DNA from: Bacteroidota bacterium | Lineage (GTDB): Bacteria > Bacteroidota > Bacteroidia > Bacteroidales > UBA4417 | Assembly (NCBI GenBank): GCA_037128115.1 | Contig: JBAXXB010000003.1 | Coordinates: 1-46,871 of the forward strand | Direction: 5' to 3' | Length of the DNA stretch: 46,871 bases | Shown: one piece after another, positions 12,376 through 30,450 of the stretch | Numbering within the stretch: the stretch's first letter is position 1 | Layout: each line of letters starts with the position of its first letter | Notes under the pieces: generated by a model | Seen by the model: only the letters and a program-made list of their open reading frames with translations | Told to the model about the DNA's origin: nothing | Databases searched by the model: none | Translations under genes and position numbers: made by a program

Positions 12376-13056
12376 ATGGAATATAAAATGAAAAATTCAG
12401 TATTTGCACAAACATATTACCTGTTGGCAATATGCATATTGCTCGGAAGCCAGGCTGTTATGGCCCAGGAACAACAAACGGCAAATGAAACGCAATTTGG
12501 TCTCAAGGGAGGAGTGAATTTTTCTGATCTCTTTACCGAAGGTGCCGACAGGTCTAATACGATAGCCGGTTTCAATGCCGGTTTATTCGCAAAGGTGGCT
12601 GTCGCATCAAAATGGGCCATCCAACCTGAAATATATTATACCACCAAGGGAGCCGAAGTAACGTACAACAACAGTTTTGTTGATGGTACGGCCCGTTTCA
12701 GGCTTAATTACATTGAAATGCCGCTTCTGCTTGTTGCCGATATTGGTGACAAAGTACAAATCATGCTGGGTCCCTATGCTTCTTACCTTGTCGGTGGTAA
12801 AGTGAAAAATTCATCCAATGTCCAGCTGTTTAATTTTGAAGACAATATCAGTGTAAACGACTACAACCGGTTTGATTTTGGAATAGTGGCAGGCATCTCC
12901 ATGGATTTTGGGACAGTAAGTATAGGGTCCAGGTATACCTATGGATTAACTACCGTTGGGAAAGAACGAACCTTTGCAGGATCACAATATACTTTCCCCG
13001 ATGCTAATAACGGCGTATTGAATTTCTTTATGGCTGTTCCGATACTTGGAAATTGA
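12376..13056 (+). CDS. Porin family / outer-membrane beta-barrel protein
   Basis: Signal peptide, FGLKGGVNFS, IQPEIYYTTKG, LNYIEMPLL, GPYASYL. Confidence 0.85.
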   Translation: MEYKMKNSVFAQTYYLLAICILLGSQAVMAQEQQTANETQFGLKGGVNFSDLFTEGADRSNTIAGFNAGLFAKVAVASKWAIQPEIYYTTKGAEVTYNNSFVDGTARFRLNYIEMPLLLVADIGDKVQIMLGPYASYLVGGKVKNSSNVQLFNFEDNISVNDYNRFDFGIVAGISMDFGTVSIGSRYTYGLTTVGKERTFAGSQYTFPDANNGVLNFFMAVPILGN

Positions 13057-13194
13057 AAATTTTCCAGGTCCACCTGTTAAAATGCTGATTTGATTTGTAT
13101 TAAATAATAGACTAACCGGCCATAGCAGGGTTGATAAACGAAAACCATAGCAATTATCTGATTATAGCCAGAACTCACCTATAGTAAATTTTTA

Positions 13195-14247
13195 TCAGGC
13201 TGTTATAATTTGAGTGGAAGTTTCAGTAAAATGAACCCAAATTACCTTGCCTTCAACCAGGTTCAGACTTCGCTGCAACTCAATGCCAACGCTGGCATGA
13301 AGCTGGAACCCCAGGTCTATAAGTACATCAAACCCGGTTCTCGATGCCGATACTTCAATGATCCTCCCTGTAAAAGTATTTGGTTGACTTGCAGGAGTAT
13401 TTTCTGATGTTAAAGTCAGATGTTCTCCTCGTATCATCAGGTGTCCTTGCCCGGAATGTAATTTTTGGGACGAAGCAACTTCAATGTTTTCAGTTAGTTG
13501 TGCTACGCAGCCTGTTAGTGTTTCCTTGATTTTCACTTTAAAAAAATTCCGGATTCCAACAAAATGAGCAACAAACTCCGAACGGGGAGAGTTAAAAACT
13601 TCTGCCGGCGAGCCTACCTGTACTATCTTGCCTTCATGGATGATAGCTATACTGTGAGCTAATGAAATAGCTTCGTCAAAATCATGTGTTACATGTATAA
13701 TGGTCTGTCCTTCGCGGTTGAGCTGACGGAGCAGGGATCGTATATCGGTTTTCAGTTTGGTATCGATGGAGGCAAGGGGTTCATCAAGTAAAAGGACTTT
13801 TGGCTTTTGCACCAGGGTTCTTGCCAAAGCCACTCGCTGGAGTTCTCCCCCTGACAGGGTTGATGGCAGACGGTCAAGGAGTTGCTCTATCTGCATCCGT
13901 TCAGCTATGGATTTAATGAGTTGCTGCTTCTGCAGGGGATGGTACGTCTGCCCCTTTAAGGCATAACCAATATTGCCTCTTACTGTCAGATGGGGAAAAA
14001 TGGCATGATCCTGGAACACCAGGCCGGCCTCACGATCCTGGGGTTTCCCGTTTTCGACGGATATCCCATCCAGGAAGATTTTACCGCTTTTAGGGGCAGA
14101 AAGCCCGGCAATCATTTCGAGCAGCATCGACTTGCCTGAGCCAGACGGGCCCAGGAGAATAAAATATTCTCCCATACTCACCTTGAAACTGATATCATTC
14201 AGGCTAAAGCCAGGGTAGCTAAGGCAAATATTTTGAAGTTCAAGCAT
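13195..14247 (-). CDS. wtpC: Tungstate/molybdate ABC transporter ATPase, probable C-terminal TOBE region
   Basis: GPSGSGKS, LSGGE, LLLDEP; overlaps wtpB. Confidence 0.8.
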   Translation of the reverse strand: MLELQNICLSYPGFSLNDISFKVSMGEYFILLGPSGSGKSMLLEMIAGLSAPKSGKIFLDGISVENGKPQDREAGLVFQDHAIFPHLTVRGNIGYALKGQTYHPLQKQQLIKSIAERMQIEQLLDRLPSTLSGGELQRVALARTLVQKPKVLLLDEPLASIDTKLKTDIRSLLRQLNREGQTIIHVTHDFDEAISLAHSIAIIHEGKIVQVGSPAEVFNSPRSEFVAHFVGIRNFFKVKIKETLTGCVAQLTENIEVASSQKLHSGQGHLMIRGEHLTLTSENTPASQPNTFTGRIIEVSASRTGFDVLIDLGFQLHASVGIELQRSLNLVEGKVIWVHFTETSTQIITA

Positions 14248-15034
14248 TTGGGCCCGGGTTTGTTTTTACGCGCGAAAGGCTGCGAAGCAAGATGAACAAT
14301 GTTAGCGAGATAAGGATAAAAAGCACCGAAACCGGGCGTGCATATTTCAGGCCGAAGGCACCGAATCGTTCGTAGATCAGCACGGGGGTTACCATGGGAT
14401 AATACGCCACGACAATTACCGCACCAAATTCACTCATTCCCCTGGCAAACATAAGGATAAGACCAGAAACAATATTCCTCCAGGCCAATGGCAGTGAAAG
14501 AGTAAAGAATACCCTGGCCGGCGAAGCCCCTAAGGTGAGAGCCGCCTTTTCGAGGCGAAGGGGAACGGCCAGGAACCCGTCGCGGGCCGAATTTACCAGG
14601 TATGGAATGCTCACAAAAGCCATAGCTATTGCAATACCAGCCGGGTGGCCAACAAAGTCGAGCCCCACACTTGACCCTATTTTGCCTAGTACAGAGTTGC
14701 GCGAAACAAATCCCAGTATAGCAATACCCGCAGCTGAATGCGGAATCACAACCGGCAGGTCAATGATACCTGTGACCAGCCTTTTCAAAACAAAATTACG
14801 CCTTGCCATAAGATAGGAAAAAGGTATAGCGGCGAAAGCAAACAAGATGGTTGCCACCATTGAAACCCAGAGTGTAAGCCAGATGCTTTCGCGTACTTCT
14901 GATTCACGCCAGGTATCTAACAGGTCACCCGCAGGTGTCGCCAGGAACATGCCCAGCAGCGGTGCCATTATAAAAAGCAGGAGCAGGGCACCCAGGAACA
15001 TAAACACCAGCTGGAAGGAGGAATACCTGTTCAT
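14240..15034 (-). CDS. wtpB: Tungstate/molybdate ABC permease
   Basis: IIDLPVVIPHSAAGIA, EAA loop LEKAALTLGAS, ARGMSEFGAV. Confidence 0.85.
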   Translation of the reverse strand: MNRYSSFQLVFMFLGALLLLFIMAPLLGMFLATPAGDLLDTWRESEVRESIWLTLWVSMVATILFAFAAIPFSYLMARRNFVLKRLVTGIIDLPVVIPHSAAGIAILGFVSRNSVLGKIGSSVGLDFVGHPAGIAIAMAFVSIPYLVNSARDGFLAVPLRLEKAALTLGASPARVFFTLSLPLAWRNIVSGLILMFARGMSEFGAVIVVAYYPMVTPVLIYERFGAFGLKYARPVSVLFILISLTLFILLRSLSRVKTNPGPNA

Positions 15035-15069
15035 GGTCGCTATTCGTGAATGATTGGTTTGTGAAAAGT

Positions 15070-16044
15070 CTACTTTTTAGTTGCAAAGGGTTTCAAAATC
15101 GCAGGTAGTTTATCATAATTCTGAACCGGCATGGGAATAACCGAAGGCTGCCCGTCTTTCTCCATTATTTTCATGCCCTTGTTTTTGGCAAGCATAAAAG
15201 CGACGAAAGCTTCCGCAGCGGCCCGGTTGGGGGCATCGCGCAAAATAGTCACTCCATAAATCATAGGCTCTCCAACCATAAGCTGTTTTTCACCTGGTTT
15301 ACTCCCGTTAATTTCGACTTTTGCAGTCGCATACAGGCTTGCCATGGAAGGGTTTTTCAGGTTGACCTGGTCGGGGAGTATGACATACTTTAACTTATGC
15401 TGTATGGCAATGGATCGGTAAATGAAAATATAATCAATACTTCCTGATTCGAGGAGTGCAACCATATCGACTTCCTTAGGACGCATATATTCCTGGTTTT
15501 TCCCCAGCATATTTTTAGACAAACCAGGCTTTTTATAGTACTTCTCCGCCAGTTGCAGGGCAAGTACAGTCCTGTATCCGCAGGGATCGCTGTTTGGGTC
15601 GGCCCTTCCGAATGTGACGTCGGGTTTCATAAGGGTTTCGTACCAATTGGCTGAACTGATTTTATCTGAATACCGGCTTTTGTCGGTATAAACAATAGCC
15701 ATTTCGTTGGAGGCAAATTTGATATTCCAGTCGGCATACTTAGGAATCAGCATTTTGTCGATAACCGAATAATCAGCCGAGGCCATGATGTCGCATGGCC
15801 TGTCCAGGTCGGTGATTTTTCGTGCCGAGGCAACAGATCCTGCTGACTCGGGTAATAGCTTCACATTTGGATAGACCTTTGTAAACTCGGTGATAATATC
15901 TTTAAAAGGAACCGACAGGCTGCCTGCATGGAAGATGATAAGATCTCCGGAAATACCGGTTCCTTGTTTCTGTGCTTTTATAGTAAAAGAAGTGACCACT
16001 AATAGAGTCAAAAAGATAAGCCGTAAGGGGGAAATAGTATTCAT
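15070..16044 (-). CDS. wtpA: WtpA-class tungstate/molybdate-binding protein
   Basis: IFHAGSLSVPF, AGSVASARKI, DIMASADY, DPNSDPCGYR, RPKE and YRSIAIQH are typical of WtpA rather than ModA or TupA. Confidence 0.9.
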   Translation of the reverse strand: MNTISPLRLIFLTLLVVTSFTIKAQKQGTGISGDLIIFHAGSLSVPFKDIITEFTKVYPNVKLLPESAGSVASARKITDLDRPCDIMASADYSVIDKMLIPKYADWNIKFASNEMAIVYTDKSRYSDKISSANWYETLMKPDVTFGRADPNSDPCGYRTVLALQLAEKYYKKPGLSKNMLGKNQEYMRPKEVDMVALLESGSIDYIFIYRSIAIQHKLKYVILPDQVNLKNPSMASLYATAKVEINGSKPGEKQLMVGEPMIYGVTILRDAPNRAAAEAFVAFMLAKNKGMKIMEKDGQPSVIPMPVQNYDKLPAILKPFATKK

Positions 16045-16064
16045 CTATGGCTGGTTTTGATGTT

Positions 16065-16092
16065 GCCGTTATGCAAATGTATTCATATTGAA
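16065..16092 (-). promoter_or_regulatory. wtpA -7 promoter (TACATTTG, 16081-16074) overlapped by a ModE-like box
   Basis: CGTTAT-N12-ATATTG at 16067-16090 versus the ModE core CGnTAT-N12-ATAnCG. Confidence 0.55.
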
Positions 16093-16303
16093 CCGTCTTC
16101 CGGGAAAGGAAAGTGATAAATGTTACCGGTAATACAACCTGTAATTCACAGTTTTTTCTGCAGGATCACTGGCGATCGTTTCGTTAGGTACTCTTAAACC
16201 CAAATTAAATGATTCAATAGCAGCTAAATGCATGGATTGATACAAATACTCGCCAGGTAATTTCAGAAAACAGATGAGCCGCCGGAATTTTATTTCGGGG
16301 CAT

Positions 16304-17311
16304 CTAATTCACAAACATTATCGATTCTACCGATTTTATAGCCCTGTCGGAGAAAAAGTCTGCGGCAGGAAAAACCTGGAAATCACCCCCGTCAGCCCCT
16401 TTTTTGAACGGTACAACCAGGAATTCGTCCTGGTCGTTACGGTTCATGACTTCGCTGAAACTGAAGGCGGCATGATAACCATCCTTGCCTGCAATAATAA
16501 ACAAACCGGTTTTCAGGCTTTTTTCATCCACCTTCACGTATTTTGAAAGCAAGTCTTTCAGTAAAATCCCCTTGAATGGAGTGGTGCCGTGAATTCCGCG
16601 CCCCCTGCCGTAAAATACTGCCGGGTAGGTGAGTTTCTCAAATTCTGCTGGCAATTCACTGATGGAATCTAAAATATTTATTCCGTTTGAAACCAGGAAA
16701 CTGCCGCTGTTCATCGGGTTCATACCCTTGTTGATCAGGTATTTGCCGGAGTAAGATTTAACAGTGATCCTGGTCGGATTGCTGATATTCCTGTGTGTAA
16801 GCAGGTCGGAAGCTACTACCAGCCTGCAATCGGTCGGAAGCGGCCATAGGTCTTTTGTTTTGGAAGGAACGATACGTGCAACCTGGGAGGCTACCAGGAT
16901 TTCATGCCGGTGTACGGGGTAATAAATCTCCCCCCAACTAAAAATGACTTTTTCACCCTCATTGTTTTCAATTTCGACATATAAATCGATAATAGGAGGG
17001 AAGTCTGCTTCGTTTTTCTTCTTCAGTACTGCCTTGTTCAAAATATCGTAGAGCGAGTATCCATCGTAGCGATAGGCGCCTACAAACTTGTCCTTGCCAT
17101 CCTGTAAGAGAGTTTCTTTTACTATCACTGACCGGAGAGGCAATGATTCGAGATCAGCAGATCCGGGATTGGAAATTTCGCCCAGGATTTCTATCACCGG
17201 CATCTTTAGCTTGATAGTTTCTGCATCATCATAAAAATCGTTGGTCTGGGCTTTTATAGCAGGAATAGAAAGCAGGAAGATTGCGATCAGGGCAGGAATC
17301 AATTTTTTCAT
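16304..17311 (-). CDS. Exported protein with two molybdopterin-oxidoreductase-like domains
   Basis: Signal peptide from ATG 17311 ending KA-Q; repeats YDGYSLYDIL...GEKVIFSWGEI and FKGILLKDLL...GKDGYHAAFSFSEV. Confidence 0.6.
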   Translation of the reverse strand: MKKLIPALIAIFLLSIPAIKAQTNDFYDDAETIKLKMPVIEILGEISNPGSADLESLPLRSVIVKETLLQDGKDKFVGAYRYDGYSLYDILNKAVLKKKNEADFPPIIDLYVEIENNEGEKVIFSWGEIYYPVHRHEILVASQVARIVPSKTKDLWPLPTDCRLVVASDLLTHRNISNPTRITVKSYSGKYLINKGMNPMNSGSFLVSNGINILDSISELPAEFEKLTYPAVFYGRGRGIHGTTPFKGILLKDLLSKYVKVDEKSLKTGLFIIAGKDGYHAAFSFSEVMNRNDQDEFLVVPFKKGADGGDFQVFPAADFFSDRAIKSVESIMFVN

Positions 17312-17387
17312 CAGGGATAGAATTAAATTATTGCTTTCGGTTTTGAAAGTGTCAGTTCGCGCACTATATGCCATCAATTAGGCAAAC

Positions 17388-19769
17388 TTAGAGATTAACA
17401 CCCACTTCGGCAGTAATAAACCTGCCCGGGCAAACTGCATACTTGCTGTCATAATACTTTGCATCCAGCAGGTTTTGTATGTTCAGGGAAACTTTATACC
17501 GCTTTTTGATGGTTTTCCATAACTTCAGGTCCAGGGTTGTATAGGCCGGGTACTTGTCGGAAAGCAGGATTTCATCCCACACATTCTGGTCGTTAATAAA
17601 CATGCAGCCCGTGTAATGAACAAGCAAACTGGTATTTACAATACGGTTGATCCAGTTGGCTCCGGCTGTAAAAATATGTGCGGGAATATCGGTGAAAAAC
17701 CTTCCGGCCAGGTTTATAGTATCGTTGCCTGAAATCTTATGATAAGCCAGGATTAAAGAATGCGTATACGCATAATTGGCAAAAATGCTCAGTGAGGATA
17801 ATATATCATATTTGACTTCGGCTTCCAGGCCATAGATTTCCACGTCGCTGATGTTGGCCCTTACGAAGATGGGCCTGTCGCCGAAACCCATATCAATGGT
17901 CTGACCATTGCTTACGTAGTATTGAAAATCTTTTCCGCGGGAGTAGTAAACTGAAGTTGTAAAAGTCGATTTTTCAGTTGGTTTCAGATCGATTCCTGTT
18001 TCGTAATTGCTGAGGTACTCAGGTTTGATGGCCGGGTTCGCAATCTTGAACCCGCCTTTAATCCTGCCTGAGCGGCACAGGTCATCCAGCACCGAGGGCC
18101 TGAGTCCGCGTGAGTACATTACATATACCCGGCTGGTTTCGTTCCATTTATACTGAGCTGAAACACGCGGACTTACAGCATTCCAGTTCTGTACCGGCAT
18201 ATCGGGCACCTGGTAACCCATCATAAACTCCGTTTCCATAGTAGGATTTTCGATCCGGAACGATCCATCATAGAAGGAAGCCATATCGAACCTTAGCCCG
18301 GCTATGAGCCTGACCTTATCCTGTAGCAATTTAATCTCATCCTGCGCAAACAGGGCATAGGTGCTCATTTTACCCTGGTTGTAGACAATGTCAGTAGATG
18401 TGTAATATTTATCGTATGCATCCACACTACCGTTCTTAAAATCGAAGCCGCCGGTAAGTACCTGGTGATCGCCAACAGCAGTGCTCAGTGATGAGAATAA
18501 GCCGTAATCGGTGCGGGTCGACAGTACATTATACCAGGTGTAGTCATCCTTCATGTATTCATTCACCTTTTTGTATTTTTCGGTAAGCCTGTAAAGGGAT
18601 GTATTCAGCCTGAACTTTTTGAGTGTTCCGCGGTAGTTAAGAATGATGCCGTACGAATCATGATCGGTGGTGTTGCCTTCGGGCTGGAATTCTTTTTCAC
18701 CCGTTCCACGCCTGTCGTTGTAATAATTCACGCTTGCTTCTATGGTGTGCTTCCCGCCTATTGAATAACCGGTTTTGAAATTCAGTCCGGCTTCCTTCAT
18801 GTTGGACTTAATAATGAAAGGATTAGCATTTCTATCAGATTCTGATTGGGTGATATAACCATCACTTTGTTTAGCCGAAAGGTTGGCCATCCAGTACCAG
18901 GAGTCCGATGCCTTTTTAACCTTTATTTTCCCGCCGGTATTTACCCGTCCACCCAGGGTGTTAAATGTCCCGTACTCGAGGGATGCATTCAGAAAGGATT
19001 TACTCTCAGGGACTTTCGTTATAATATTGATAATCCCGCCCATGGCATTGCCCCCATACACCGCGGAGCCGGCACCCTTTGTAATTTCTATCTTATCGAC
19101 GGAGTTCATATCAATCATATTCCAGTCGACTGTACCTCCATCCGATTTATTGATCGGGATTCCATCCATCAGCACCAGTACCCGGCCCTGTTCCTTTCCG
19201 CTCATGCCACGCATGGTTACAATTCCTTTGGTGCTGAAAATACCGAAGGGCCTGCTGTAGTTGATACCCGGGGCATATTTAAGCGCTTCGTCAATATTCT
19301 GCATAGGCATGCTGTTCAGCATTTTAGGCGAAATAAGATTCACTCGTACCGGGGCATTCAGGATGCGGTTATCAGTACGTGTGGCCGTTATGACTATTTC
19401 ATCCATAGGAATGGATGCAGGGAAAATGGAAAAGGCAGCCAGGCTATTTTCACCCGGTTTTAGCAGGGTCTTATAATGAAATGTCTCAAAACCCACATAG
19501 CTGACAGTGATCAGGGCTGAATCGGAAGCCAGGTTGCAGAGACGAAAACTGCCGTCATGATTGGAAGTGTTAAGCGAAGAGGATACCAGGATAGTTGCAT
19601 CGTAAACCGGTTTCCCGTTAGCAGCATTTAAAATCTTCCCGCTTAAACACGATTGCCCGCTAAGTTGAAAAGATTGAATAAGAAAAAAGATGACTATTAC
19701 AGGAAACAACAGATTTGTCGAAGACCGGCCGGAAAATATACTGCTTTGAACTCCCTTATTATGCTGCAT
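17388..19769 (-). CDS. TonB-dependent outer-membrane receptor
   Basis: Carboxypeptidase-regulatory-like N-domain, DEIVITATR, plug RVLVLMDGIP / IEITKGAGSAVYGGNAMGGIINIIT, C-terminal NLLDAKYY...PGRFITAEVGVNL. Confidence 0.95.
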   Translation of the reverse strand: MQHNKGVQSSIFSGRSSTNLLFPVIVIFFLIQSFQLSGQSCLSGKILNAANGKPVYDATILVSSSLNTSNHDGSFRLCNLASDSALITVSYVGFETFHYKTLLKPGENSLAAFSIFPASIPMDEIVITATRTDNRILNAPVRVNLISPKMLNSMPMQNIDEALKYAPGINYSRPFGIFSTKGIVTMRGMSGKEQGRVLVLMDGIPINKSDGGTVDWNMIDMNSVDKIEITKGAGSAVYGGNAMGGIINIITKVPESKSFLNASLEYGTFNTLGGRVNTGGKIKVKKASDSWYWMANLSAKQSDGYITQSESDRNANPFIIKSNMKEAGLNFKTGYSIGGKHTIEASVNYYNDRRGTGEKEFQPEGNTTDHDSYGIILNYRGTLKKFRLNTSLYRLTEKYKKVNEYMKDDYTWYNVLSTRTDYGLFSSLSTAVGDHQVLTGGFDFKNGSVDAYDKYYTSTDIVYNQGKMSTYALFAQDEIKLLQDKVRLIAGLRFDMASFYDGSFRIENPTMETEFMMGYQVPDMPVQNWNAVSPRVSAQYKWNETSRVYVMYSRGLRPSVLDDLCRSGRIKGGFKIANPAIKPEYLSNYETGIDLKPTEKSTFTTSVYYSRGKDFQYYVSNGQTIDMGFGDRPIFVRANISDVEIYGLEAEVKYDILSSLSIFANYAYTHSLILAYHKISGNDTINLAGRFFTDIPAHIFTAGANWINRIVNTSLLVHYTGCMFINDQNVWDEILLSDKYPAYTTLDLKLWKTIKKRYKVSLNIQNLLDAKYYDSKYAVCPGRFITAEVGVNL

Positions 19770-19835
19770 ATGTCTGATTTTTAACTGGGTATCATAGCCT
19801 GTTGCCTGGTTTTTTGTGGCTTTCAGTGCATATGA

Positions 19836-20786
19836 TTACTTCTGAATTTTGATCGCAATTTCCATGGTTCCGTCGTTTATTTCATCGGCGTGAATCACCT
19901 TAATCAGCCCGTATTTGCCTTCCTGGGTTTTGAAAGGGATGACTTTGCCTGTGTAACCGTATTTACAGTTCCCGCTAACCTTATCCGGTTTATAAGCAGT
20001 CACCAGGAGGCTGTCATTCTGAGCAGCATCAAATTCACCTGTAGTAATAAGGTTGTTGTCACTCGAATAATAATCATACAAAATATTATTCTTCACCGGC
20101 CAGCCTCCAATGAGAGGATAATACCCAACCACCGATACATATCCGGGGCAAATAAAGGTAGGGGAGGGGAGCCCGGAAGTGACATAATAATAAACCAAAA
20201 GGTCAATTTCGCTTTCGTGCCCTGCAACACTTGTTTCATCGAAAATAAAACCGTTATTCACATCCAGGAAATGCCCGGAAGTATTGTTGTTCTGGAAACC
20301 AAGTTTCAGATTGCTGAAGTAATTTATTGGGCTGTAGGCCGTTCCTGATCCTTTATAGATAGTGATGGTTCTTACGGCAGTATCGCGGTCGGCATTCATT
20401 ACCAGTATATGCCATAATTCAACGGCCGAAGTGTCTTTCGAAAAGGTATAATCTGCATCCAGGCCTTCGTTCCCAACAAATATTCCACGATCGAGCTGGG
20501 TGAGTGTGTCGTTGCCAGTTATCCTGTCGATGCGGATATAGGTAAGCGGAACACCTGCACCCGAAGCCATTACACCAATCCTGATGCTGCCACCCACAGG
20601 GATACTCGCCCCGTCCGCTGTATAAGCAACACCGGTTTTAAGAATAAGGGAAGCCTGTTTGATAGTTTCCTCTTTAGCGCAGGACGAAAAAAGAGAAACC
20701 GATACCAGGACTGGCAGAATAAAAAACCAAACAGCTTTTAACAAGCTGAATGGTTTTCGGCAAACAAACATGATTGAACTAACCAT
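19836..20786 (-). CDS. Putative surface lipoprotein
   Basis: Lipobox FSSC; C-terminus FKTQEGKYGLIKV...IAIKIQK; paralog of the upstream gene. Confidence 0.8.
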   Translation of the reverse strand: MVSSIMFVCRKPFSLLKAVWFFILPVLVSVSLFSSCAKEETIKQASLILKTGVAYTADGASIPVGGSIRIGVMASGAGVPLTYIRIDRITGNDTLTQLDRGIFVGNEGLDADYTFSKDTSAVELWHILVMNADRDTAVRTITIYKGSGTAYSPINYFSNLKLGFQNNNTSGHFLDVNNGFIFDETSVAGHESEIDLLVYYYVTSGLPSPTFICPGYVSVVGYYPLIGGWPVKNNILYDYYSSDNNLITTGEFDAAQNDSLLVTAYKPDKVSGNCKYGYTGKVIPFKTQEGKYGLIKVIHADEINDGTMEIAIKIQK

Positions 20787-20788
20787 CT

Positions 20789-21670
20789 TTATTTCTGAAT
20801 CTTAACTGCAATCTGCAGGGTCCCCGCGTCGGTTCCGTCAACAGCGGTTACTTTATACAGGCCAAATTTCCCTGATTGGAGTTTAAAGGCGTAAACATCG
20901 CCAACCGTAAGAACTTTGGCTTTTTTAAATTGATTATTCGGGTCATACGAAGCAAGCAATACCGCATCATTCTGAACGGCGTCGAACTGTGCAACCGTCA
21001 GGGTGGTCTTAACGAAGAAGGTGATGTTTTTGGTTGTGTAGAAATCAGGTGCCGTCGAACCCGTGAAGATTCCCGTAATATTTGAGCCCGGTGCTGCCAA
21101 GGTCGTCATATTAACATGCGAAGCCGTATTTTCATAGAAACAGAACATATCGATATCGGGCTGGTGAGCAAACGCATCGGCCTGGAAATATGGCGTCGAA
21201 GTTCCGTTGCTGAAGGAGAGGAAGCTTTTCTCAGTTGTGTTGTTCTGGGCACCAAATGTGATAGAATTATAAGTCAAAATCTCACCGAAATTTCCCGTTA
21301 TAATCAATGAATCTGCCTTGGAATTGCCTGCAATATCCGTAGTGACAAATTTCCAGACTTCCTTATCAAGGACGCTTTTAATGGCATAAAAGTCGAATGT
21401 ATAGTCAAGGGTACTTATCGTTGAATCGAGTACCGACTGGCCGTTAACCAGGATCTGGAACTTAGCCAGTTTGTCGGTTCCATTCGATTTTAGGATGATT
21501 CCCATTGTAAGCGTATCGCCAAACTTAGCTGAAGTATTTGCTGATATGTAGCCGGTAGCCTGCCTGAAGCTAATGGTTGGAGGGACAGGATCGCTCTCTT
21601 TGGAACAAGCTGTAATTAAGATTGTAGCAGAAATAACAACAAGGCTAATGAGAGTAAACAGTTTTTTCAT
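20789..21670 (-). CDS. Putative surface lipoprotein
   Basis: Lipobox ITAC followed by SKESD (resembles a Bacteroidetes surface-export signal); FKLQSGKFGLYKV...IAVKIQK. Confidence 0.85.
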   Translation of the reverse strand: MKKLFTLISLVVISATILITACSKESDPVPPTISFRQATGYISANTSAKFGDTLTMGIILKSNGTDKLAKFQILVNGQSVLDSTISTLDYTFDFYAIKSVLDKEVWKFVTTDIAGNSKADSLIITGNFGEILTYNSITFGAQNNTTEKSFLSFSNGTSTPYFQADAFAHQPDIDMFCFYENTASHVNMTTLAAPGSNITGIFTGSTAPDFYTTKNITFFVKTTLTVAQFDAVQNDAVLLASYDPNNQFKKAKVLTVGDVYAFKLQSGKFGLYKVTAVDGTDAGTLQIAVKIQK

Positions 21671-21688
21671 GGATTTAAAGAATAAAGT

Positions 21689-21726
21689 ATCGATTAGTAC
21701 TGAATTTCATATCGATGGCAAAAGTA
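21689..21726 (-). promoter_or_regulatory. -7 promoter TACTTTTG (21726-21719) with an adjacent 28-bp ModE-like palindrome (21689-21716)
   Basis: ATCGATTAGTA-CTGAAT-TTCATATCGAT versus the ModE consensus ATCGnTATATA-N6-TATATAnCGAT. Confidence 0.6.
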
Positions 21727-21801
21727 GTTTTTTCTAAATATGCTGCGACATAGGATATAAATTTTATTTCCAAAGTGGATCAGCGAAACCCTTATAAACA
21801 T

Positions 21802-21835
21802 AAAGGCCTGATAATTAAAATTATCAGGCCTTTTT
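21802..21835. terminator. Perfect hairpin, probable terminator of the S9 peptidase gene
   Basis: AAAGGCCTGATAATT-AA-AATTATCAGGCCTTT. Confidence 0.85.
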
Positions 21836-21849
21836 AGATCAGAAAATAA

Positions 21850-23982
21850 TTATAAATTCTGATCGTAATATTCAGCCAGTTTGCTGTAAAGATGCAGCCG
21901 GTCGGTCCCGCTTACATTATGTTCGTGCTGGGGATACACAAAATAATCTACCTGTTTGCCTTTCCTGATGCAGGTCTGTATGAACTGCAGGCTGTTCTGC
22001 CAAACAACCGTGTTATCCTGGGCACCTTGAATTACAAGCACTTTGCCATCAAGCTGGTCCACGTAATTCAACAGGCATGCCTTCTTATAGCCCTCAGGAT
22101 TCTGCTCCGGAGTATCCATATAGCGTTCGCCATACATCACCTCATAGTATTTCCAGTCAACAACCGGGCCTCCGCAGGTGGCTACCTTGAAAACACCAGG
22201 GTTGCGCATTTTGAGTGTCAATGTCATAAAGCCGCCGTAGCTCCATCCGTCAATGCCCATGCGGCTTGAATCCACAAAAGGCAAAGATTTCAGGTAGTTG
22301 ACGCCGACCATCTGGTCCTTGCTTTCTATGTCTCCAAGATGCCGGTGGATGATATGCTCAAAAGCCGTTCCCCGGTTTGAAGTTCCGCGGTTGTCGAGTG
22401 TCCAGACAATGTATCCTCTGGTGGCCAGGTAATTAAAATACAGGTTGGCACCACCCAGCCAGGTATCGGTTACCAGTTGCGAATGAGGTCCTCCATACAC
22501 ATATACAAGCACCGGATATTTTTTTGCCGGATCAAACCCACGGGGAAGCATCAACCTGCCGTACAGGTCGTTCCCGTCATCAGCCTTAAGTGTTACAAGG
22601 GTGGTTTCGCCGAGTTTGTAATCTTTTAAAGGATTCAGGTCTTCGGAGATAACGCATATAGTTTCACCTTTCTCGTTAAGGAGTGAATTTCTTGAACCTA
22701 CAACCATGCTGCTTAAATGATCGAGTATATAATGTCCATCGGGGGACACAAAAGTAGTATGCGTACCTTTGCCTGAGTTGTATTTCGTGGTATTGCCGGT
22801 TTTAAGGTCGACGGAATAAAGTTGGCGTTCCAGCGGGCTTTCCTGGGTTGAGGTGTAAAAAATCCTGGCCTCTTTAGAATCAAAACCCTGGTAAGAGGTT
22901 ACTTCCCATACTCCATGGGTCACTTGTTTGATCAACTTGCCTTCGGTGTCGTATAAATAAAGGTGGTTATACCCGTCCCGCCGGCTTTGCCAGATGAATT
23001 GCGAGGGGTTGGTTTTCAGGAAATATAAACCGTTAAGGGGTTCAACATATTCCTTGTTGGTTTCTTCAAAAAGCGTTTTCACGAAATCACCGGTGGAGGC
23101 ATCGTACTTGTTCAGCCACATATGATCCTGGTCGCGGTTGAGAACAGCGATGAAAATATATTTTTCGTCCGGGCTCCAGGTAATATTAGTGAGGTATTGC
23201 TCGGCGGGTTCGCCGGTTTTTAGGAAGACCGTTTTGTTCTTTACAGGGTCAAAAACCCCGACTGTGACCTGATGACTTGCCATGCCAGCCATTGGGTAGC
23301 GGATGTATTCCACTTTAGCAACCCGTTCGTCGATATTTACAAGGGGGTATTCAGTCACCATGGTTTCGTCCATACGGTAAAATGCCAGGAAGTTGCCTTG
23401 CGGCGACCAGAATGTGCCTCCATCGATACCAAATTCGTTGCGGTGTACCGTTTTGCCGTTCACTATGCCCTTTATGGAATCGCTTGTTACAGCTATTGTT
23501 TTTCCTGCAACCGAAACGTAAAGATTGTTTTCTTTGGTAAAGGCAACTCTGCCGGAAATAGGTTCAAAATCTACATTTTCGGCCTCGGATTCATAACTAT
23601 TTGCCATTTCCAGGTCGTTTGTTAGCGCATGGAACCGGAAAATTTTCGAATCGTTGGTATACCTGAATGTATTTTCATCTTCCCACCTGATGGCAGGCAT
23701 GCTTTTTAATTTCTTCTGCTGTTTCTGATCAACTATGAGGTTGAGGTTCCCGAGGGTAAGTATGGTGTCGGTAGTTCCTGCTTTCAGCAGGTTTTGAACC
23801 AGGCAGTTATTGGCATTCCATGTAAAATGGGTGTTGCTTCGCCACTGGACATTTGACCATTGAGCAGGATAGAGTTTCCGGTTCATCAGGTCATCAATCG
23901 CCAGTTGTTTTTGCTGGGCGAAAAGCGAAGGCACAAGTAATAAGAGCAGACCAAGTAGGGCAGAGGATGATTTTTGAGACAT
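21850..23982 (-). CDS. S9B peptidase (DPP-IV family, prolyl tripeptidyl peptidase-like)
   Basis: Signal peptide, VYGGP, catalytic GWSYGG, DNTV, HEHNV. Confidence 0.9.
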   Translation of the reverse strand: MSQKSSSALLGLLLLLVPSLFAQQKQLAIDDLMNRKLYPAQWSNVQWRSNTHFTWNANNCLVQNLLKAGTTDTILTLGNLNLIVDQKQQKKLKSMPAIRWEDENTFRYTNDSKIFRFHALTNDLEMANSYESEAENVDFEPISGRVAFTKENNLYVSVAGKTIAVTSDSIKGIVNGKTVHRNEFGIDGGTFWSPQGNFLAFYRMDETMVTEYPLVNIDERVAKVEYIRYPMAGMASHQVTVGVFDPVKNKTVFLKTGEPAEQYLTNITWSPDEKYIFIAVLNRDQDHMWLNKYDASTGDFVKTLFEETNKEYVEPLNGLYFLKTNPSQFIWQSRRDGYNHLYLYDTEGKLIKQVTHGVWEVTSYQGFDSKEARIFYTSTQESPLERQLYSVDLKTGNTTKYNSGKGTHTTFVSPDGHYILDHLSSMVVGSRNSLLNEKGETICVISEDLNPLKDYKLGETTLVTLKADDGNDLYGRLMLPRGFDPAKKYPVLVYVYGGPHSQLVTDTWLGGANLYFNYLATRGYIVWTLDNRGTSNRGTAFEHIIHRHLGDIESKDQMVGVNYLKSLPFVDSSRMGIDGWSYGGFMTLTLKMRNPGVFKVATCGGPVVDWKYYEVMYGERYMDTPEQNPEGYKKACLLNYVDQLDGKVLVIQGAQDNTVVWQNSLQFIQTCIRKGKQVDYFVYPQHEHNVSGTDRLHLYSKLAEYYDQNL

Positions 23983-24006: not shown

Positions 24007-24759
24007 TTATTTGGTAAATGTTGATGCCGAGTGAACTGCATCTGCGATTTCGGAAATCAGGCCGGAATTTTTCTCAAAAGCAGTACCTACTACTATAATG
24101 TCGGCTCCTGCTAAAGCGATTTCCCTTGTTTTTTCAGGAGTGTTGAGCCCTCCTCCAGCCAACAGGGGAATACTGATGTTTTGTTTCACCTGTTCGACCA
24201 TTTCCTTTGATACAGGGTTAATGGCCCCGCTACCGGCTTCCAGATAAATCATTTTGAGTCCTAGCATCTCACCGGCCATGGCTGTACAGATGGCAATATC
24301 CATCTTATCGGCAGGAATAGGCATGGTATTACTCATATATTGCACGGCTGTAGGTTTGCCATTCTCAATCAGCATATATCCACACGAAATTACTTCAAGC
24401 GGGCTGAGTCTCAGGTATGGCGCAGCTATTACATGACGGCCGATCAGCATCTCGGCATTGCGGCCGCTGATCAGGGAAAGAAAAAGTATGGCATCGGCTC
24501 TCCAACTCATTTGCATGGTATTGCCGGGAAACAATATCACCGGGATATCGCTGTTTGCTTTTAATGTTTTGATACACTGGTCCAGTTCATTATTCACCAG
24601 CAGGCTTCCCCCTACAAAAAAATAATCCACACCCGAAAGAGCAGCTTTAATGGCTATGCTCTCAACCTCCTTGTTTTTTAACTTATCAGGATCAACCAGT
24701 ACAGTCAGCATTTTCCTGCCTTGTGCGGATTGTTCCAGAAGATGTTGATAAATAGTCAT
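24007..24759 (-). CDS. Geranylgeranylglyceryl/heptaprenylglyceryl phosphate synthase (group II GGGPS)
   Basis: LVDPDK, FVGGS, LFPGN, FLSLISGRN, YLEAGSGA, GGGL, VVGTAFE. Confidence 0.9.
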   Translation of the reverse strand: MTIYQHLLEQSAQGRKMLTVLVDPDKLKNKEVESIAIKAALSGVDYFFVGGSLLVNNELDQCIKTLKANSDIPVILFPGNTMQMSWRADAILFLSLISGRNAEMLIGRHVIAAPYLRLSPLEVISCGYMLIENGKPTAVQYMSNTMPIPADKMDIAICTAMAGEMLGLKMIYLEAGSGAINPVSKEMVEQVKQNISIPLLAGGGLNTPEKTREIALAGADIIVVGTAFEKNSGLISEIADAVHSASTFTK

Positions 24760-25122
24760 TTGAAGCGACTGTTTTTATATCGGTAAGCAATTATTTTTTT
24801 TACGTAAGTGTGCCGAGTTTTGTTGTTCTTGATGCTGGATAAAGTAAAGAGCCGTGAATTGGAAATGATTTCCATATTTCTTGCTTCACTTCTTTTGCCC
24901 CGTGATTTCGTATAAATGAACGCTGAAACATGAAATGATAATTTTTACAGGCTCAAAAATTAAAAAAGCAAATGTAGAGAAAAGGAGATAATGAGTGCGC
25001 TGTTCCTGCCGAAACATTATAAACAATGCCATTTTGCGGGATACTATCAGCTTTTTCATATTCTTTATGGGTTAAAATGGGCGGGAATCGGGTTAGCCTC
25101 CATTAATCCTGCAAGAATAATT

Positions 25123-26079
25123 TTAAAAGACTGCTTTTGCGATTTTACAGATGTTGTCCGACTTGCCCATAGTGTAAAAGTGTAGCACGGGTACTCCGAA
25201 ACTGATCAGTTCGCGGGATTGCTGTATGGCCCATTCTACCCCAACCTGTCTTACCTGTTGGTTATCAGAGCATTTCTCTATTTCTTTTACCAGTTCATCC
25301 GGTATGTCAATGGAAAAGGTACGGGGCAGGGTCGAAAGCTGCGATTTCAGTGATATTGGTTTTAAGCCTGGAATAATGGGAATATGGATACCTGCTTCGC
25401 GGCATGCGTTCACAAACTCAAAATATTTCGAATTATCGAAAAACATTTGCGTGACAATGTAGTCGGCGCCGGCATCCACTTTATCTTTAAGGTGCTGTAA
25501 ATCGGTTGCCAGGTTAGGCGATTCCATATGTTTTTCGGGGTAACCGGCTACACCTATACAGAAATTTGTTGGAACCGGGTTCAGCATTTCTTCCTCCAGG
25601 AATTTTCCCTGGTTCAGTTTAATCACCTGCTTTACCAGGTCGATGGCGTAGCGGTGCCCGTCGGGGTCGGGTTTAAATTGTTTTTCGCCCCTCAGGTTAT
25701 CGCCCCTGATCAGTAAAATATTGTCTATGCCCAGGAACTGAAGGTCGATCAGCGCATTTTCAGTTTCTTCCTGGCTGAACCCACCGCAAATCAGGTGAGG
25801 AACCACGTCGAGCCCATATTTGAATTTAATGGCGGCGGCAATCCCCACTGTCCCGGGCCTCTTCCTCACGGTCCTGCGTTCGAGCAACCCGTCCTCACGT
25901 TCTTTAAAGATGACCTCTTCCCTGTGATAGGTTACGTCGACGAAGGAAGGATTGAATTCAATCAGTGGTTCAATGGTCTGGTAGATGGAATTGATGTTCT
26001 CCCCTTTCAGTGGAGGGAGTAACTCGAAGGTAAAAAGGGGTTTGCCTTTACTGTTATCAATATATTCGGTGACTTTCAT
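25123..26079 (-). CDS. metF: 5,10-methylenetetrahydrofolate reductase
   Basis: FELLPP, PHLICGG, RGD, VAGYPEKH, VTQMFFDN, HFYTMG. Confidence 0.95.
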   Translation of the reverse strand: MKVTEYIDNSKGKPLFTFELLPPLKGENINSIYQTIEPLIEFNPSFVDVTYHREEVIFKEREDGLLERRTVRKRPGTVGIAAAIKFKYGLDVVPHLICGGFSQEETENALIDLQFLGIDNILLIRGDNLRGEKQFKPDPDGHRYAIDLVKQVIKLNQGKFLEEEMLNPVPTNFCIGVAGYPEKHMESPNLATDLQHLKDKVDAGADYIVTQMFFDNSKYFEFVNACREAGIHIPIIPGLKPISLKSQLSTLPRTFSIDIPDELVKEIEKCSDNQQVRQVGVEWAIQQSRELISFGVPVLHFYTMGKSDNICKIAKAVF

Positions 26080-26202
26080 TTTCGGGTTCTTCTTGTGAAA
26101 TTATTTTAATAATGCTATTGAATCAATCCAGGGGTTTTAAACCTGGAGTTGCCTTAACTTAACCAGTTTTCAGATTAACTTGGTCTTATCCATCCTTCAA
26201 AA

Positions 26203-29200
26203 TTAATAATTCAGGTTCGATGCCAGTAATTTTTCTGTTTCGCTGACAGACAGGTTTTTGCGGGAAGCATAATCTTCAACCTGTTCGCGGCTGATACGGC
26301 TGATTGCAAAATACTGTGCTTCGGGGTTTGCAAAATAGTACCCGCTCACGGCTGCGCCTGGGTACATGGCGTAATTTTCGGTTAAAGTAATGCCTGTTTT
26401 TTCGGCATCGAGCAGGTTGAAAATAGTTCCTTTCTCGCTGTGCTCAGGACAGGCCGGGTAACCCGGTGCGGGACGTATGCCGGCATAGCCTTCGTGTATA
26501 ATTTCTTCAATTCCCAGGTTCTCATCTTTCGCATATCCCCAGTATTCTTTGCGTACCTTCTCATGCAAGAGTTCGGCAAAGGCTTCGGCGAGCCTGTCGG
26601 CTAAAATTTTAACCATGATGGCATTGTAATCGTCGTCCTGATCTTCGAAGTGTTTCACCCACTTTTCGATTCCAAGCCCGGCGGTTACTGCAAATAGACC
26701 GATGTAGTCATTATACCCGCACTCTTTTGGTGCAATGAAATCGGCTAGTGATAAGTTAGGGATGCCTTTTTCTTTTTCTTCCTCGTTACGCAGGAAATGG
26801 AGCATGGTATTCCTGCTTCCTTCAACCGATAGTTCCAGGCTGTCGCCCACAGCGTTAGCGGGAAAAAAACCGAAAACACCATTTGCACTTACCATGTGTT
26901 CATCAATAACCCTCTTTAACAGGAACTGGGCATCGTTAAACAGTTTACGCGCTTCCACACCTTTCAGGGGATCTTCGAAAATAGCCGGGTATTTCCCGCT
27001 GATCTTCCAGGCATGGAAGAAGAAAGTCCAATCGATATAACGGCTGATTTCCTGAAGCGGATAATTTTCAAGATATTTTACTCCGGTAAATGCTGGCGTA
27101 ACGGGCTTGTAGGTTTTCCAATCGATTAAAAAGCGGTTGGCACGTGCTTGTTCCAACGACAAATAGGTAATGCCGGCCCTGGTACTTTCGTGCTTATGGC
27201 GCAGCTGTTCATATTTCAAACTAACTGAGTCAACGAAAGGCTTTTTGCCATCCTGCGAAAGCAACGCTGCTACAACACCTGTAGCCCTTGAAGCATCACG
27301 CACATGCACAACCGGGTGGCTGTATTCGGGAGCAATCTTGACGGCGGTATGCATTTCGCTGGTGGTAGCCCCGCCAATCAACAGGGGGATGCTGAATCCT
27401 CTTCGTTCCATTTCGGAAGCTACGAAACCCATTTCCTCCAGCGAAGGGGTAATTAAACCGGATAATCCTATAATGTCGACTTTTTCCTTAATGGCGGCAT
27501 CCAGGATTTTCTCAGCATGCACCATCACTCCGAGGTCGACCACCTCATAGTTATTGCATCCCAGGACTACTCCTACAATATTTTTACCAATATCGTGCAC
27601 ATCTCCCTTTACGGTGGCCATGAGAATTTTACCTGCCGAACTCCTCACCCCCTGCACTTTTTCGGCTTCAATATAAGGTAGCAGAACAGCAACCGCTTTC
27701 TTCATTACCCTGGCACTCTTCACAACCTGGGGCAGGAACATTTTCCCGGCCCCGAAAAGGTCGCCTACCACGTTCATGCCTGCCATCAGGGGGCCTTCAA
27801 TAACTTCGAGTGCCCTGGCAAAATGAGGGCGTGCTTCTTCAACATCGGTAGCCACATCTGCATCAAGCCCGTGTACCAGGGCGTATGTCAGCCTCTCGTT
27901 CACAGGTAATCCTCGCCATGCTTTTGCAGCGGCTTCGGTCTTTTCGGTGGCCTTCATCTTCGAAGCATAGCCGATCAGCCTTTCGGTTGAATCGGGCCTG
28001 CGGTTAAAAAGCACGTCTTCAATAAGTTCGAGTAAGTCAGCCGGAATGTCATCGTAAACCGGCAGGTTCCCGGCATTGACAATTCCCATATCCATGCCTG
28101 CTTTTATGGCATGGTAAAGAAAAACGGAATGCATGGCTTCGCGCAGGTCATCGTTTCCACGAAACGAAAACGAAAGGTTGCTGATGCCACCGCTGATCCG
28201 GGCATAAGGAAGGTTTTTCTTTATCCAGGTAATGGTATTAATAAAATCGACAGCGTAATTGTTGTGTTCTTCAATACCGGTGGCGATAGCAAGTATATTC
28301 GGGTCGAAAATGATATCCTCAGGGGGCACGCCCAACTCATCGACCAGTATATGATAAGCCCGGGAACAGATTTCGGTCCGGCGTTCGAAGGTACTGGCCT
28401 GGCCTTGTTCGTCGAAAGCCATTACTATCATAGCTGCCCCGTAATTCCTGATTTTCTGTGCATGTTCCCTGAAGGCATCCTCACCTTCCTTCATACTGAT
28501 GGAATTCACAATGGCTTTACCTTGCAGGCATTTCAACCCGGCTTCTATAACCTCCCATTTCGAGGAATCTATCATAATGGGCACCCTGGCAATTTCGGGC
28601 TCGGCCATCAGCAGGTGAAGATACCTGGTCATTTCGCGTTTGGCATCGAGCAAGGCATCGTCCATATTGATATCCAGCACCTGGGCACCGGCATCTACCT
28701 GTTGGCGGGCGACGGATAAGGCTTCATCGTATTTTTCCTCACGAATGAGGCGGGCAAATTTCTTAGAGCCTGAAACATTGGTCCGTTCACCAATATTTAT
28801 GAAATTGCTGTTCTCGAAAACCATCAAGGGCTCAAGGCCGCTGAGCCTCAAATGTTTTGGGATAGCTGGAATATGCCGTGGTGTTGATTGTTCCGCAACT
28901 TTGCAGAGTTCCCTAATATGTTCAGGTGTTGTGCCGCAACATCCGCCGATGATATTAACCGATTTATTATGGAGTATAGGTTGAATATGATGAGCCATTT
29001 GCATGGGTGATTCGTCATATTCCCCGAATTGGTTCGGCAGTCCGGCGTTGGGATAAGCGCTTACATAAAAAGGTGCTTTCCTCGAAAGCTCTTCTATAAA
29101 TGGATTGAGTTGTTCCGCCCCGAGTGAACAATTGAATCCGACGCTTAACAGGTCAATATGTGAAACCGAATTCAGGAAAGCCTCGGTAGTTTGCCCCGAA

Positions 29201-29865: not shown

Positions 29866-29975
29866 GCTGCTTGTATGTTAATCCGTTCTGCATGCTTAAA
29901 ACAAAGCAGCAGCTCAGAAGTTTTGAACTCAACACATTCAGTTTCTCCGCATTCCGGGAGCAGGAGTGTGTTTTA

Positions 29976-30081: not shown

Positions 30082-30120
30082 CCAAACCTCCTTAGTTTAT
30101 GAAAGGAATATTTGAAGCTG

Positions 30121-30359: not shown

Positions 30360-30450
30360 GAAATTTGAGTAAAGGAAAATTGTTTTATGTCAGCGAAATC
30401 TGTGGCAGACTTTGGTGTTTCAGCGTTAAGCCTGGAATGGTTGATGCCAG

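Follow-up and report, generated by a model that had tools for sequence, protein, structure and literature searches.

The stretch of DNA analysed in this work (hereafter the window) comprises 46,871 nucleotides of contig JBAXXB010000003.1 from a Bacteroidota bacterium (order Bacteroidales, UBA4417; assembly GCA_037128115.1). The seven genes at positions 13195-21726 of the window encode two lipoproteins (LipoA and LipoB), a TonB-dependent receptor, an exported protein that is designated X, and the three components of a WtpABC-type ATP-binding cassette (ABC) transporter for tungstate and molybdate. The combined evidence from sequence, fold and comparative genomics shows that lipoA, lipoB, the receptor and X form a functional group with wtpABC, and that ModE-N-like regulators and tungstoenzymes of the aldehyde:ferredoxin oxidoreductase (AFOR) type belong to the same group. 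The features of the cluster are listed in Table 1.

Table 1. Features of the cluster and their positions in the window
Feature	Position	Strand	Basis
lipoA, 293 aa: lipoprotein	20789..21670	-	Open reading frame; lipobox Cys22, immunoglobulin-like domain (27-128), HmuY-like/DUF4466-like domain (130-293)
lipoB, 316 aa: paralog of lipoA, ~26% identity	19836..20786	-	Lipobox LFSSC followed by AKEE
TonB-dependent receptor, 793 aa	17388..19769	-	CarboxypepD_reg-like N-domain, plug, barrel
X, 336 aa from MKKLIP	16304..17314 (17377 if upstream TTG start)	-	Signal peptide and two degenerate sulfite oxidase (SUOX)/PruR-type domains
wtpA: periplasmic tungstate/molybdate-binding protein (by homology)	15070..16044	-	NF003196 above cut-off
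wtpB: ABC permease	14240..15034	-	Best family NF040839 WtpB, below cut-off
wtpC: ABC ATPase	13195..14247	-	Best family NF040840 WtpC, below cut-off
Intrinsic-terminator-like hairpin, 14-bp stem, 4-nt loop	21802..21833	-	Directly 3' of upstream dipeptidyl peptidase IV (DPP-IV) gene
lipoA promoter block	21693..21726	-	TACTTTTG (21726-21719) then CCATCGATATGAA; conserved among relatives
Candidate ModE-type operator TATG-N10-CATA	16070..16087	both	43 nt upstream of wtpA ATG

An earlier note on this DNA had described the cluster as seven genes in one orientation, set apart from the upstream gene by a strong hairpin and preceded by ModE-like boxes at both promoters. This description is partly confirmed. 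The open reading frame (ORF) calls place all seven genes on the minus strand, and the hairpin was found directly after the gene of a DPP-IV-type peptidase (21850-23982), from which it is predicted to insulate the cluster. The genes lie 2 nt (lipoA-lipoB), 66 nt (lipoB-receptor) and about 73 nt (receptor-X) apart. A gap of 260 nt separates X from wtpA, 35 nt separate wtpA from wtpB, and wtpB and wtpC overlap by 8 nt. The cluster appears to consist of two units with separate promoters, lipoA-lipoB-receptor-X and wtpABC. No Pfam or NCBIfam family covers LipoA, LipoB or X.

The co-occurrence of these genes was determined across 331 species genomes that sample the Bacteroidales evenly, using profile searches for X, WtpA, AFOR_C, MoaC and the receptor. 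X was found in 75 genomes that belong to 54 of the 216 genera. WtpA (E<=1e-30) was found in 110 genomes, which include all 75 genomes with X and only 35 of the 256 genomes without it. AFOR was found in 137 genomes, among them 74 of the 75 with X and 108 of the 110 with WtpA. MoaC was found in 151 genomes and in 70 of the 75 with X; the five X-bearing genomes that lack it are 85-89% complete (G000, G047, G184 and G281) or 97% complete (G226). The best receptor matches, 18 at 700 bits or more, all come from genomes with both X and WtpA, and 12 of them lie within 3 kb of X. Between 550 and 700 bits there are 15 matches, with 13 in X-bearing genomes and nine within 3 kb of X, and between 300 and 430 bits there are 40, with 12 in X-bearing genomes and three within 3 kb of X, against a background of X in 75 of the 331 genomes. 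The earlier note had named co-occurrence and linkage with wtp, modE and tungstoenzyme genes as a test of its interpretation, and this test came out in its favour.

X and wtpA also tend to be neighbours. In 47 of the 75 genomes, a single contig carries both genes at a distance of no more than 9 kb, and 45 of these 47 pairs are co-oriented. Their distance is 500 bp or less in 21 of the linked genomes, and X may stand on either side of wtpA. The neighbourhoods of X (about 9.4 kb on each side) were collected from 74 genomes, and 72 loci were kept after two without an X ORF (L095 and L149) had been dropped. A receptor gene stands directly upstream of X in 34 of the 72 loci and a lipoprotein gene upstream in 28. 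A wtp gene is present within about seven genes of X in 45 loci, a gene for a ModE-N-like helix-turn-helix (HTH) protein in 24 and AFOR in eight, while receptor and wtp genes are both near X in 21. The recurrent gene orders are ModE-like-wtpA-X-wtpB-wtpC, ModE-like-wtpA-receptor-X-wtpB-wtpC, (ModE-like)-wtpA-lipoprotein-lipoprotein-receptor-X-wtpB-wtpC, and the order of the window itself. In seven of the 72 loci (for example L091, L103, L116, L136, L143 and L147), from several genera, the cassette is inserted between wtpA and wtpB/C. That the transporter operon is interrupted in this way in several genera and in different arrangements would be difficult to account for if the products did not cooperate.

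The 80 loci that are most similar to the window all come from Bacteroidales or from metagenome-assembled genomes (MAGs) of Bacteroidota. A receptor gene is found beside X in 35 of them and both lipoprotein genes in 34, and these loci taken alone would suggest a conserved lipoprotein-receptor-X module with occasional wtp linkage. Receptor cassettes also occur apart from X and wtp. Lipoprotein genes precede ten of the 11 high-scoring receptors of this kind, and the remaining one (L169) begins at the end of its contig. In the L167 cassette, a ModE-like gene stands upstream as well. Copies of X that stand alone are flanked by unrelated housekeeping genes (RecO, RecJ, PorZ-like, glycoside hydrolase GH31, exonuclease VII and pyruvate phosphate dikinase).

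Other genes recur around X. A 193-aa protein of no known family follows X in 16 of the 80 closest loci (for example L047:11299-11880), and a pair of proteins of about 245 aa and 265-300 aa is encoded between X and wtpA in four loci (L142:4236-5772, L151:7763-9374, L144 and L153). NAD-type aldehyde dehydrogenase genes are found in or beside the W/Mo (tungsten/molybdenum) loci L096, L097, L110, L113 and L123, all five in the order wtpA-Aldedh-X, and also at L093 and L118. The genome to which the window belongs has such genes next to a ModE-N-like regulator gene (C119:5486-9252, L087). The best families of these dehydrogenases are piperideine-6-carboxylate and glutamate-semialdehyde dehydrogenases. 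We speculate that, as part of the same regulon, they may stand in for AFOR without a need for tungsten.

The homologs of X number 2,259 at E<=1e-3 among 4,223 candidates from a set of 5.8 billion proteins, and 284 representatives were found at the same threshold in a library clustered at 50% identity. Wherever a source names one of the 120 listed homologs, the name is 'hypothetical protein' except for one 'predicted transcriptional regulator', and none of these 120 has a precomputed Pfam domain. X begins with a signal peptide, MKKLIPALIAIFLLSIPAIKAQ. The AlphaFold2 model of X, which was built from an alignment of 53 sequences, has a predicted local distance difference test (pLDDT) score of 95.4 and a predicted template modelling (pTM) score of 0.90. 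Residues 36-191 and residues 195-336 each show the fold of the molybdenum-cofactor (Moco) domain of sulfite oxidase in Foldseek and VIA-align comparisons. The Z scores of both domains range from 9.2 to 11.8 across the folds of the sulfite oxidase family. Nitrate reductase, SoxC, SorA and chicken sulfite oxidase give Z 11.5-11.8 over 133-136 aa with root-mean-square deviations (rmsd) of 2.7-3.1, and the PruR pterin-binding proteins 7kp2 and 7rkb match domain 2 over 117 aa with Z 11.3 and 11.2. The name 'tandem molybdopterin-oxidoreductase-like protein' that the earlier note had given to X was right as to fold.

The X of the window has no match in Pfam, PF00174 included, even at E<=10, whereas distant homologs of X match PF00174 directly and the nearest named neighbours in the ESM Atlas are PF00174 clusters. 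No conserved Cys is present among the invariant columns or the columns conserved at 90% or more in the 53 aligned homologs. The profile search of the PDB with the X alignment gave YedY as its sole match (E 0.59), and this weak alignment places no Cys opposite the Mo-ligand Cys. The conserved charged residues are D170 and R175 in domain 1 and E288, D319, D323 and R324 in domain 2. These acidic and basic residues are candidates, from their conservation, for an anion or ligand pocket. X was considered as an active Moco enzyme, and this was rejected as it lacks a conserved Cys. X is not a canonical Moco enzyme, and it resembles PruR. X shares the fold of both its domains with the sulfite oxidase family (PF00174: sulfite oxidase, SorA, YedY/MsrP and the Moco domain of nitrate reductase) but differs from it in having no conserved Cys, no heme domain, no dimerisation domain and no Pfam match.

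PruR is described in PMC11194511 as a periplasmic, Cys-less pterin binder of Proteobacteria with the SUOX fold, and the pterin-stacking residues named there are Tyr/Trp and Asn. X is likewise exported and likewise has a degenerate Moco-domain fold without the Mo-ligand Cys. X differs from PruR in carrying a tandem pair of these domains and in its linkage or fusion to WtpA, and no gene for a DcpA-type cyclic di-GMP enzyme (GGDEF/EAL protein with a periplasmic loop) was present among the neighbours of X examined.

Fusions of X to other proteins were also identified. Three protein clusters (P0163, P0338 and P0339) are fusions of X with WtpA. The C-terminal part of P0163 is 52% identical to WtpA of the window and starts at residue 26 of that protein; P0163 is a true fusion and not a read-through product because its WtpA part begins after the signal peptide. 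A larger group of 67 protein clusters (P0271-P0337, about 642 aa) carries X with its signal peptide at the N-terminus and an Asparaginase_2/isoaspartyl-peptidase domain (PF01112) after it. The gene for this form follows mutS2 in 28 of the 80 closest loci, mostly in MAGs labelled Rikenella or Rikenellaceae, at about 10001-11930 in L023, L025, L029, L031, L033-L034, L036-L037 and others. WtpA is present, but unlinked, in all five tested genomes with this form. Six clusters of distant relatives (P0201, P0209, P0237, P0254, P0260 and P0340) combine tandem PF00174 domains with a tetrapyrrole-methylase-type domain (TP_methylase, PF00590).

LipoA and its paralog LipoB both have the lipobox Cys, which is invariant. 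The residues that follow this Cys are acidic or lysine-rich (CSKESD in LipoA, CAKEE in LipoB), which we take to fit the surface-export signal of Bacteroidetes lipoproteins. The AlphaFold2 model of LipoA (39 sequences) has a pLDDT of 94.0. Residues 130-293 of LipoA match HmuY (3h8t; Z 9.8, 127 aa, rmsd 3.8) and PinO (6r2h; Z 9.7), and the whole protein matches the DUF4466 structure 4ei0 with Z 15.7 over 241 aa and a Foldseek E of 6e-12. The analogy to HmuR-HmuY that the earlier note had drawn has thereby gained structural support. By sequence, Pfam gave nothing meaningful for LipoA or LipoB at E<=10, with neither PF14064 (HmuY) nor PF14725 (DUF4466) reached, and each of these two families is matched by one of the 39 lipoprotein relatives below the usual significance. 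In some genomes, a protein with a C-terminal sorting domain (Por_Secre_tail) of the type IX secretion system (T9SS) is encoded at the second lipoprotein position or next to it (L100:12929-13783, L134:11068-12480, L119:10485-11870 and L139:12748-13524), which means that T9SS can take the place of a lipid in anchoring the surface partner. In L090, L117, L119, L120 and L131, the outer-membrane part is present in tandem, as lipoprotein-receptor followed by lipoprotein-lipoprotein-receptor-X.

The receptor matches the plug (PF07715, 5.9e-23) and barrel (PF00593, 1.2e-47) families of the TonB-dependent receptor superfamily, in which the barrel has 22 strands. None of the curated substrate subfamilies fits it: it scores 206.8 bits against the heme/hemoglobin family TIGR01785 (cut-off 316.85) and 115.8 bits against the BtuB family TIGR01779 (cut-off 599.7). 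Its matches to PDB sequences cover the plug region only (best E 1.3e-24), and no informative close homolog is among them. The cassette resembles the HmuR-HmuY (heme) and BtuB-BtuG (B12) systems in that a receptor gene is preceded by genes of surface-type lipoproteins, one of which has a HmuY-like C-domain. It differs from both systems in that its genomic partners are W/Mo genes rather than heme or B12 genes, in that it has no B12 riboswitch, and in that a periplasmic tandem-SUOX protein of its own is added. The idea of a heme or B12 system was rejected because of the W/Mo partners, the lack of a riboswitch and the missed subfamily cut-offs.

WtpA of the window scores above the cut-offs of NF003196 (380.5 bits, cut-off 355) and TIGR03730 (338 bits, cut-off 242.75), and the solved archaeal WtpA/ModA structures 3cfz, 2onk and 3cg1 match it at E 1e-67 to 6e-74. 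WtpB and WtpC remain below the cut-offs of their top-scoring families, with 275 bits against 340 for NF040839 and 317.4 bits against 440 for NF040840. The assignment of the transporter as WtpABC in the earlier note is hence upheld for wtpA, while wtpB and wtpC are best matched by Wtp families but fall short of equivalog level. The system shares the gene order A-B-C and a WtpA above cut-off with archaeal WtpABC (Pyrococcus furiosus WtpA and Archaeoglobus fulgidus ModA/WtpA-ModBC). It differs from the archaeal system in being bacterial (Bacteroidales), in its lower-scoring wtpB and wtpC, and in the addition of the outer-membrane receptor cassette and the periplasmic X.

The host genome, which is 84.9% complete, carries one AFOR, MoeA, a molybdopterin oxidoreductase and two ModE-N-like regulators, and ThiF/MoeB-like genes are found near the AFOR gene. 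MoaC was not detected in this 84.9% of the genome. The search of the same assembly for another ModA or Tup importer gave only weak matches to the Wtp genes of the window. These are the sole recognisable W/Mo importer of the host since no other ModA or TupB was found. The host also has a paralogous pair on another contig (C55:1-9700, L084), which consists of a lipoprotein that is truncated at the contig end and a receptor that is 36% identical to that of the window. This pair is followed by T9SS-sorted and TPR proteins, lacks X and adjoins an ars cluster (ArsR, ArsC, a C-GCAxxG-C-C protein and arsenite methyltransferase); it said nothing on the cargo.

Palindromes were enumerated in 131 regions upstream of wtpA, wtpB, ModE-like, AFOR, lipoprotein, receptor and X genes and were compared with 437 control regions from the same loci. 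The palindrome TATGT-N8-ACATA was singled out, with eight target regions and no control region. The longer form ATATGT-N8-ACATAT with at most one mismatch is present in 11 of the 131 targets and in three of the 437 controls, and these three are intergenic regions beside ModE-like genes. The core TATG-N10-CATA is present in 25 targets and 15 controls. Of the 11 receptor cassettes without linkage to X or wtp, seven likewise have the core ahead of their first lipoprotein gene.

The window has a single match to this core in 46.9 kb, the site before wtpA. As chance predicts about one match in the window (mean 0.81), it is the position of the core and not its presence that counts. The full site, ATATGAATACATTTGCATAA (16088-16069, minus strand), overlaps a TAnnTTTG-like element, TACATTTG. 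The lipoA promoter block TACTTTTGCC.CCGATATGAAT is conserved in all ten aligned upstream regions (the window and nine close relatives), and its TACTTTTG fits the Bacteroidetes -7 element TAnnTTTG. The left half-site is intact in this block and the right half is degenerate (ATATGA-N8-ACTAAT at 21712-21693). The ModE-like boxes that the earlier note had placed at both promoters are thus only half supported, with an exact core of the candidate operator before wtpA and a degenerate copy at lipoA. The scan of the host genome gave 82 core sites in 4.77 Mb, as many as chance predicts. Rfam (E<=5) showed no Moco, B12 or other riboswitch at 12800-22200, where weak small RNA and microRNA matches fell on the hairpin alone.

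The candidate regulators are HTH-only proteins of 120-125 aa with the ModE N-domain as their best family, and the two in the host have 120-124 aa. Control by a ModE-type system is plausible from these motifs and proteins. An AT-rich palindrome upstream of a transporter gene and ModE-N-like HTH proteins in the host genome and beside many related loci are shared with the ModE regulon of Escherichia coli. In contrast to E. coli ModE, the regulators are short, without Mop/TOBE and below the TIGR00637 cut-off. The motif TATG-N10-CATA was derived in this work and not from a known matrix.

We interpret the cluster, with a probability of about 0.6, as an outer-membrane W/Mo capture and uptake module that feeds WtpABC. 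It would form a two-membrane acquisition system for tungsten and possibly also for molybdenum. The HmuY-like lipoproteins would capture a W/Mo species on the cell surface, which may be free tungstate or molybdate at very low concentration, a small (metallophore) complex or a thio-metalate. The receptor would carry this species across the outer membrane on TonB energy, and X would receive or process the cargo in the periplasm and pass the oxyanion to WtpA. Import of the oxyanion by WtpBC would then supply AFOR and the de novo synthesis of tungstopterin. The surface-exposed lipoprotein binders, the W/Mo cargo of the receptor and the hand-over from X to WtpA are the parts that we infer. The W/Mo uptake interpretation of the earlier note is thus partly supported. 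No observation points to the 'larger' cargo that it had proposed. The evidence does not discriminate between the free oxyanion, the metallophore complex and the thio-metalate. A more elaborate model is offered tentatively and put at somewhat below even odds. It is an energised outer-membrane route of Bacteroidales for group-6 oxyanions with HmuY-like lipoprotein 'tungstophores', a dedicated TonB receptor, X (two Moco-binding domains whose cofactor ligand was lost) as a tungstate/molybdate (or thio-metalate) chaperone or converter that loads WtpA, and tungsten-sparing NAD-dependent aldehyde dehydrogenases in the same regulon.

Several observations weigh against the uptake module. No receptor gene stands directly upstream of X in 38 of the 72 loci, and X may for this reason serve WtpA independently of the outer-membrane step. 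There are wtp genes without a receptor in 24 loci, a receptor without wtp genes in 13, and none of receptor, wtp and ModE-like genes in 11; many contigs of the last two groups are short. These neighbourhoods rest on gene calls by a crude ORF caller of our own and on labels by hidden Markov models of clusters from the closest-loci set. The primary partner of X is probably WtpA since X is often found with wtp genes but no receptor, and the receptor cassette appears to be an optional addition at the outer membrane. Among the 80 closest loci, wtpA is near X in just eight. The nearest curated subfamilies of the receptor are the heme and B12 receptors, although both score below cut-off, and the 67 clusters of X-Asparaginase_2 fusions have no explanation in a W/Mo model. 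On the side of regulation, the lipoA site has three mismatches to ATATGT-N8-ACATAT, a level that is reached by 103 of the 437 controls, and no exact copy is present there. The scan of the host genome found no core site at the AFOR or ModE-like promoters. The ModE-like proteins have no Mop/TOBE domains and score 67-70 bits against the 98.5-bit cut-off of TIGR00637, and no TOBE/Mop domain was found in the 84.9% complete host genome. The sampled genomes are related and not independent, so that co-occurrence statistics overstate significance and no p-value is taken at face value, yet the pattern of X with WtpA in 75 of 75 genomes over 54 genera is strong despite this kinship. The complex prediction of X (23-336) with WtpA (27-324) gave a score of 0.01 against a mark of 0.32 and is evidence neither way.

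The same observations can be read in other ways. X could be a periplasmic accessory of WtpA only (for binding, selectivity or conversion), with the lipoproteins and the receptor importing another co-regulated or adjacent nutrient such as a pterin, iron or heme, or a cofactor of a tungstoenzyme. The X-WtpA fusions and the 24 loci with wtp but no receptor, which include compact ModE-like-wtpA-X-wtpB-wtpC operons, agree with such a role of X, and the heme and B12 subfamilies as best curated matches of the receptor and the HmuY-like (hemophore-like) domain of the lipoproteins agree with another nutrient. But seven loci of several genera have the cassette placed between wtpA and wtpB/C, all 18 top receptor orthologs are in genomes with WtpA and X, and seven of the 11 unlinked cassettes share the palindrome of the wtpA, ModE-like and AFOR promoters. 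The heme and B12 cut-offs are also missed widely, there is no B12 riboswitch, and Pfam HmuY is matched by only one of 39 lipoprotein relatives. We regard this explanation as unlikely. Chance adjacency of an unrelated lipoprotein/receptor operon to wtpABC in the host genome agrees with the distance of 260 bp between the two units, with their probably separate promoters and with wtpA as a neighbour of X in only eight of the 80 most similar loci. The evidence from co-occurrence, embedding, fusion and the shared motif makes it very improbable.

The receptor could also import a preformed pterin cofactor (Moco, tungstopterin or a precursor) that X holds in the periplasm, which is the salvage variant that the earlier note had allowed for. 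Both domains of X have a fold that binds Moco or pterin, with Z 11.2-11.3 to PruR and 11.5-11.8 to Moco domains, and PruR itself is a periplasmic Cys-less pterin binder (PMC11194511). MoaC was also not detected in the host genome. This genome nevertheless has MoeA, and MoaC is present in 70 of the 75 genomes with X, with four of the other five only 85-89% complete. Moreover, the fusions and the embedded arrangements join X to an oxyanion-binding protein and the ABC permease of that protein and not to a cofactor transporter, and WtpA is close to the solved oxyanion-binding WtpA/ModA proteins. The coupling of X to an oxyanion ABC system and the retention of MoaC by nearly all carriers speak against an obligate salvage of finished cofactor. 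We consider the salvage explanation, for Moco as for the tungsten cofactor, to be quite improbable.

The remainder of the window consists of housekeeping genes that are unrelated to the cluster. A methyl-cycle neighbourhood at 24007-31353 and 36338-37792 encodes a PcrB-like protein, methylenetetrahydrofolate reductase (MTHFR), B12-dependent methionine synthase (1220 aa), S-adenosylmethionine (SAM) hydroxide adenosyltransferase and S-adenosylhomocysteine hydrolase. A 358-aa protein with a domain of the bacterial archaeo-eukaryotic release-factor family 3 (PF18845, E 3.5e-36) is encoded at 7444-8520. At least half of the sampled words of 13195-21726 are present in four public DNA runs, which are freshwater metagenome runs from two studies. 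No RNA run among the public runs listed matches this stretch.

Tungstate and molybdate are generally assumed to diffuse through outer-membrane porins, and to our knowledge their passage of the Gram-negative outer membrane has been tied to no dedicated system. Uptake of Mo-catecholate metallophores occurs in Azotobacter. Our full-text literature searches, for which most subscription journals were outside reach, returned no description of a TonB-dependent W/Mo uptake system or of a periplasmic Wtp accessory. PMC11734730 reports a ModA that is secreted by the type VI secretion system and docks on IcmP in Pseudomonas, and just ABC systems and ModE are listed in the accessible parts of PMC11672702 and PMC13144720.

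If the uptake module is true, tungsten and molybdenum would join the short list of nutrients that are imported by machines of TonB-dependent receptors and lipoproteins. X would represent a new family of periplasmic accessories for Wtp transporters, in which a Moco-binding fold has been reused as a module that handles a metal or a ligand. The palindromic operator and the short ModE-like regulator would define a concrete regulon. Such a system would also help to explain how AFOR-type tungstoenzymes are supplied at trace metal concentrations in the anaerobic Bacteroidales of freshwater, sediments and digesters.

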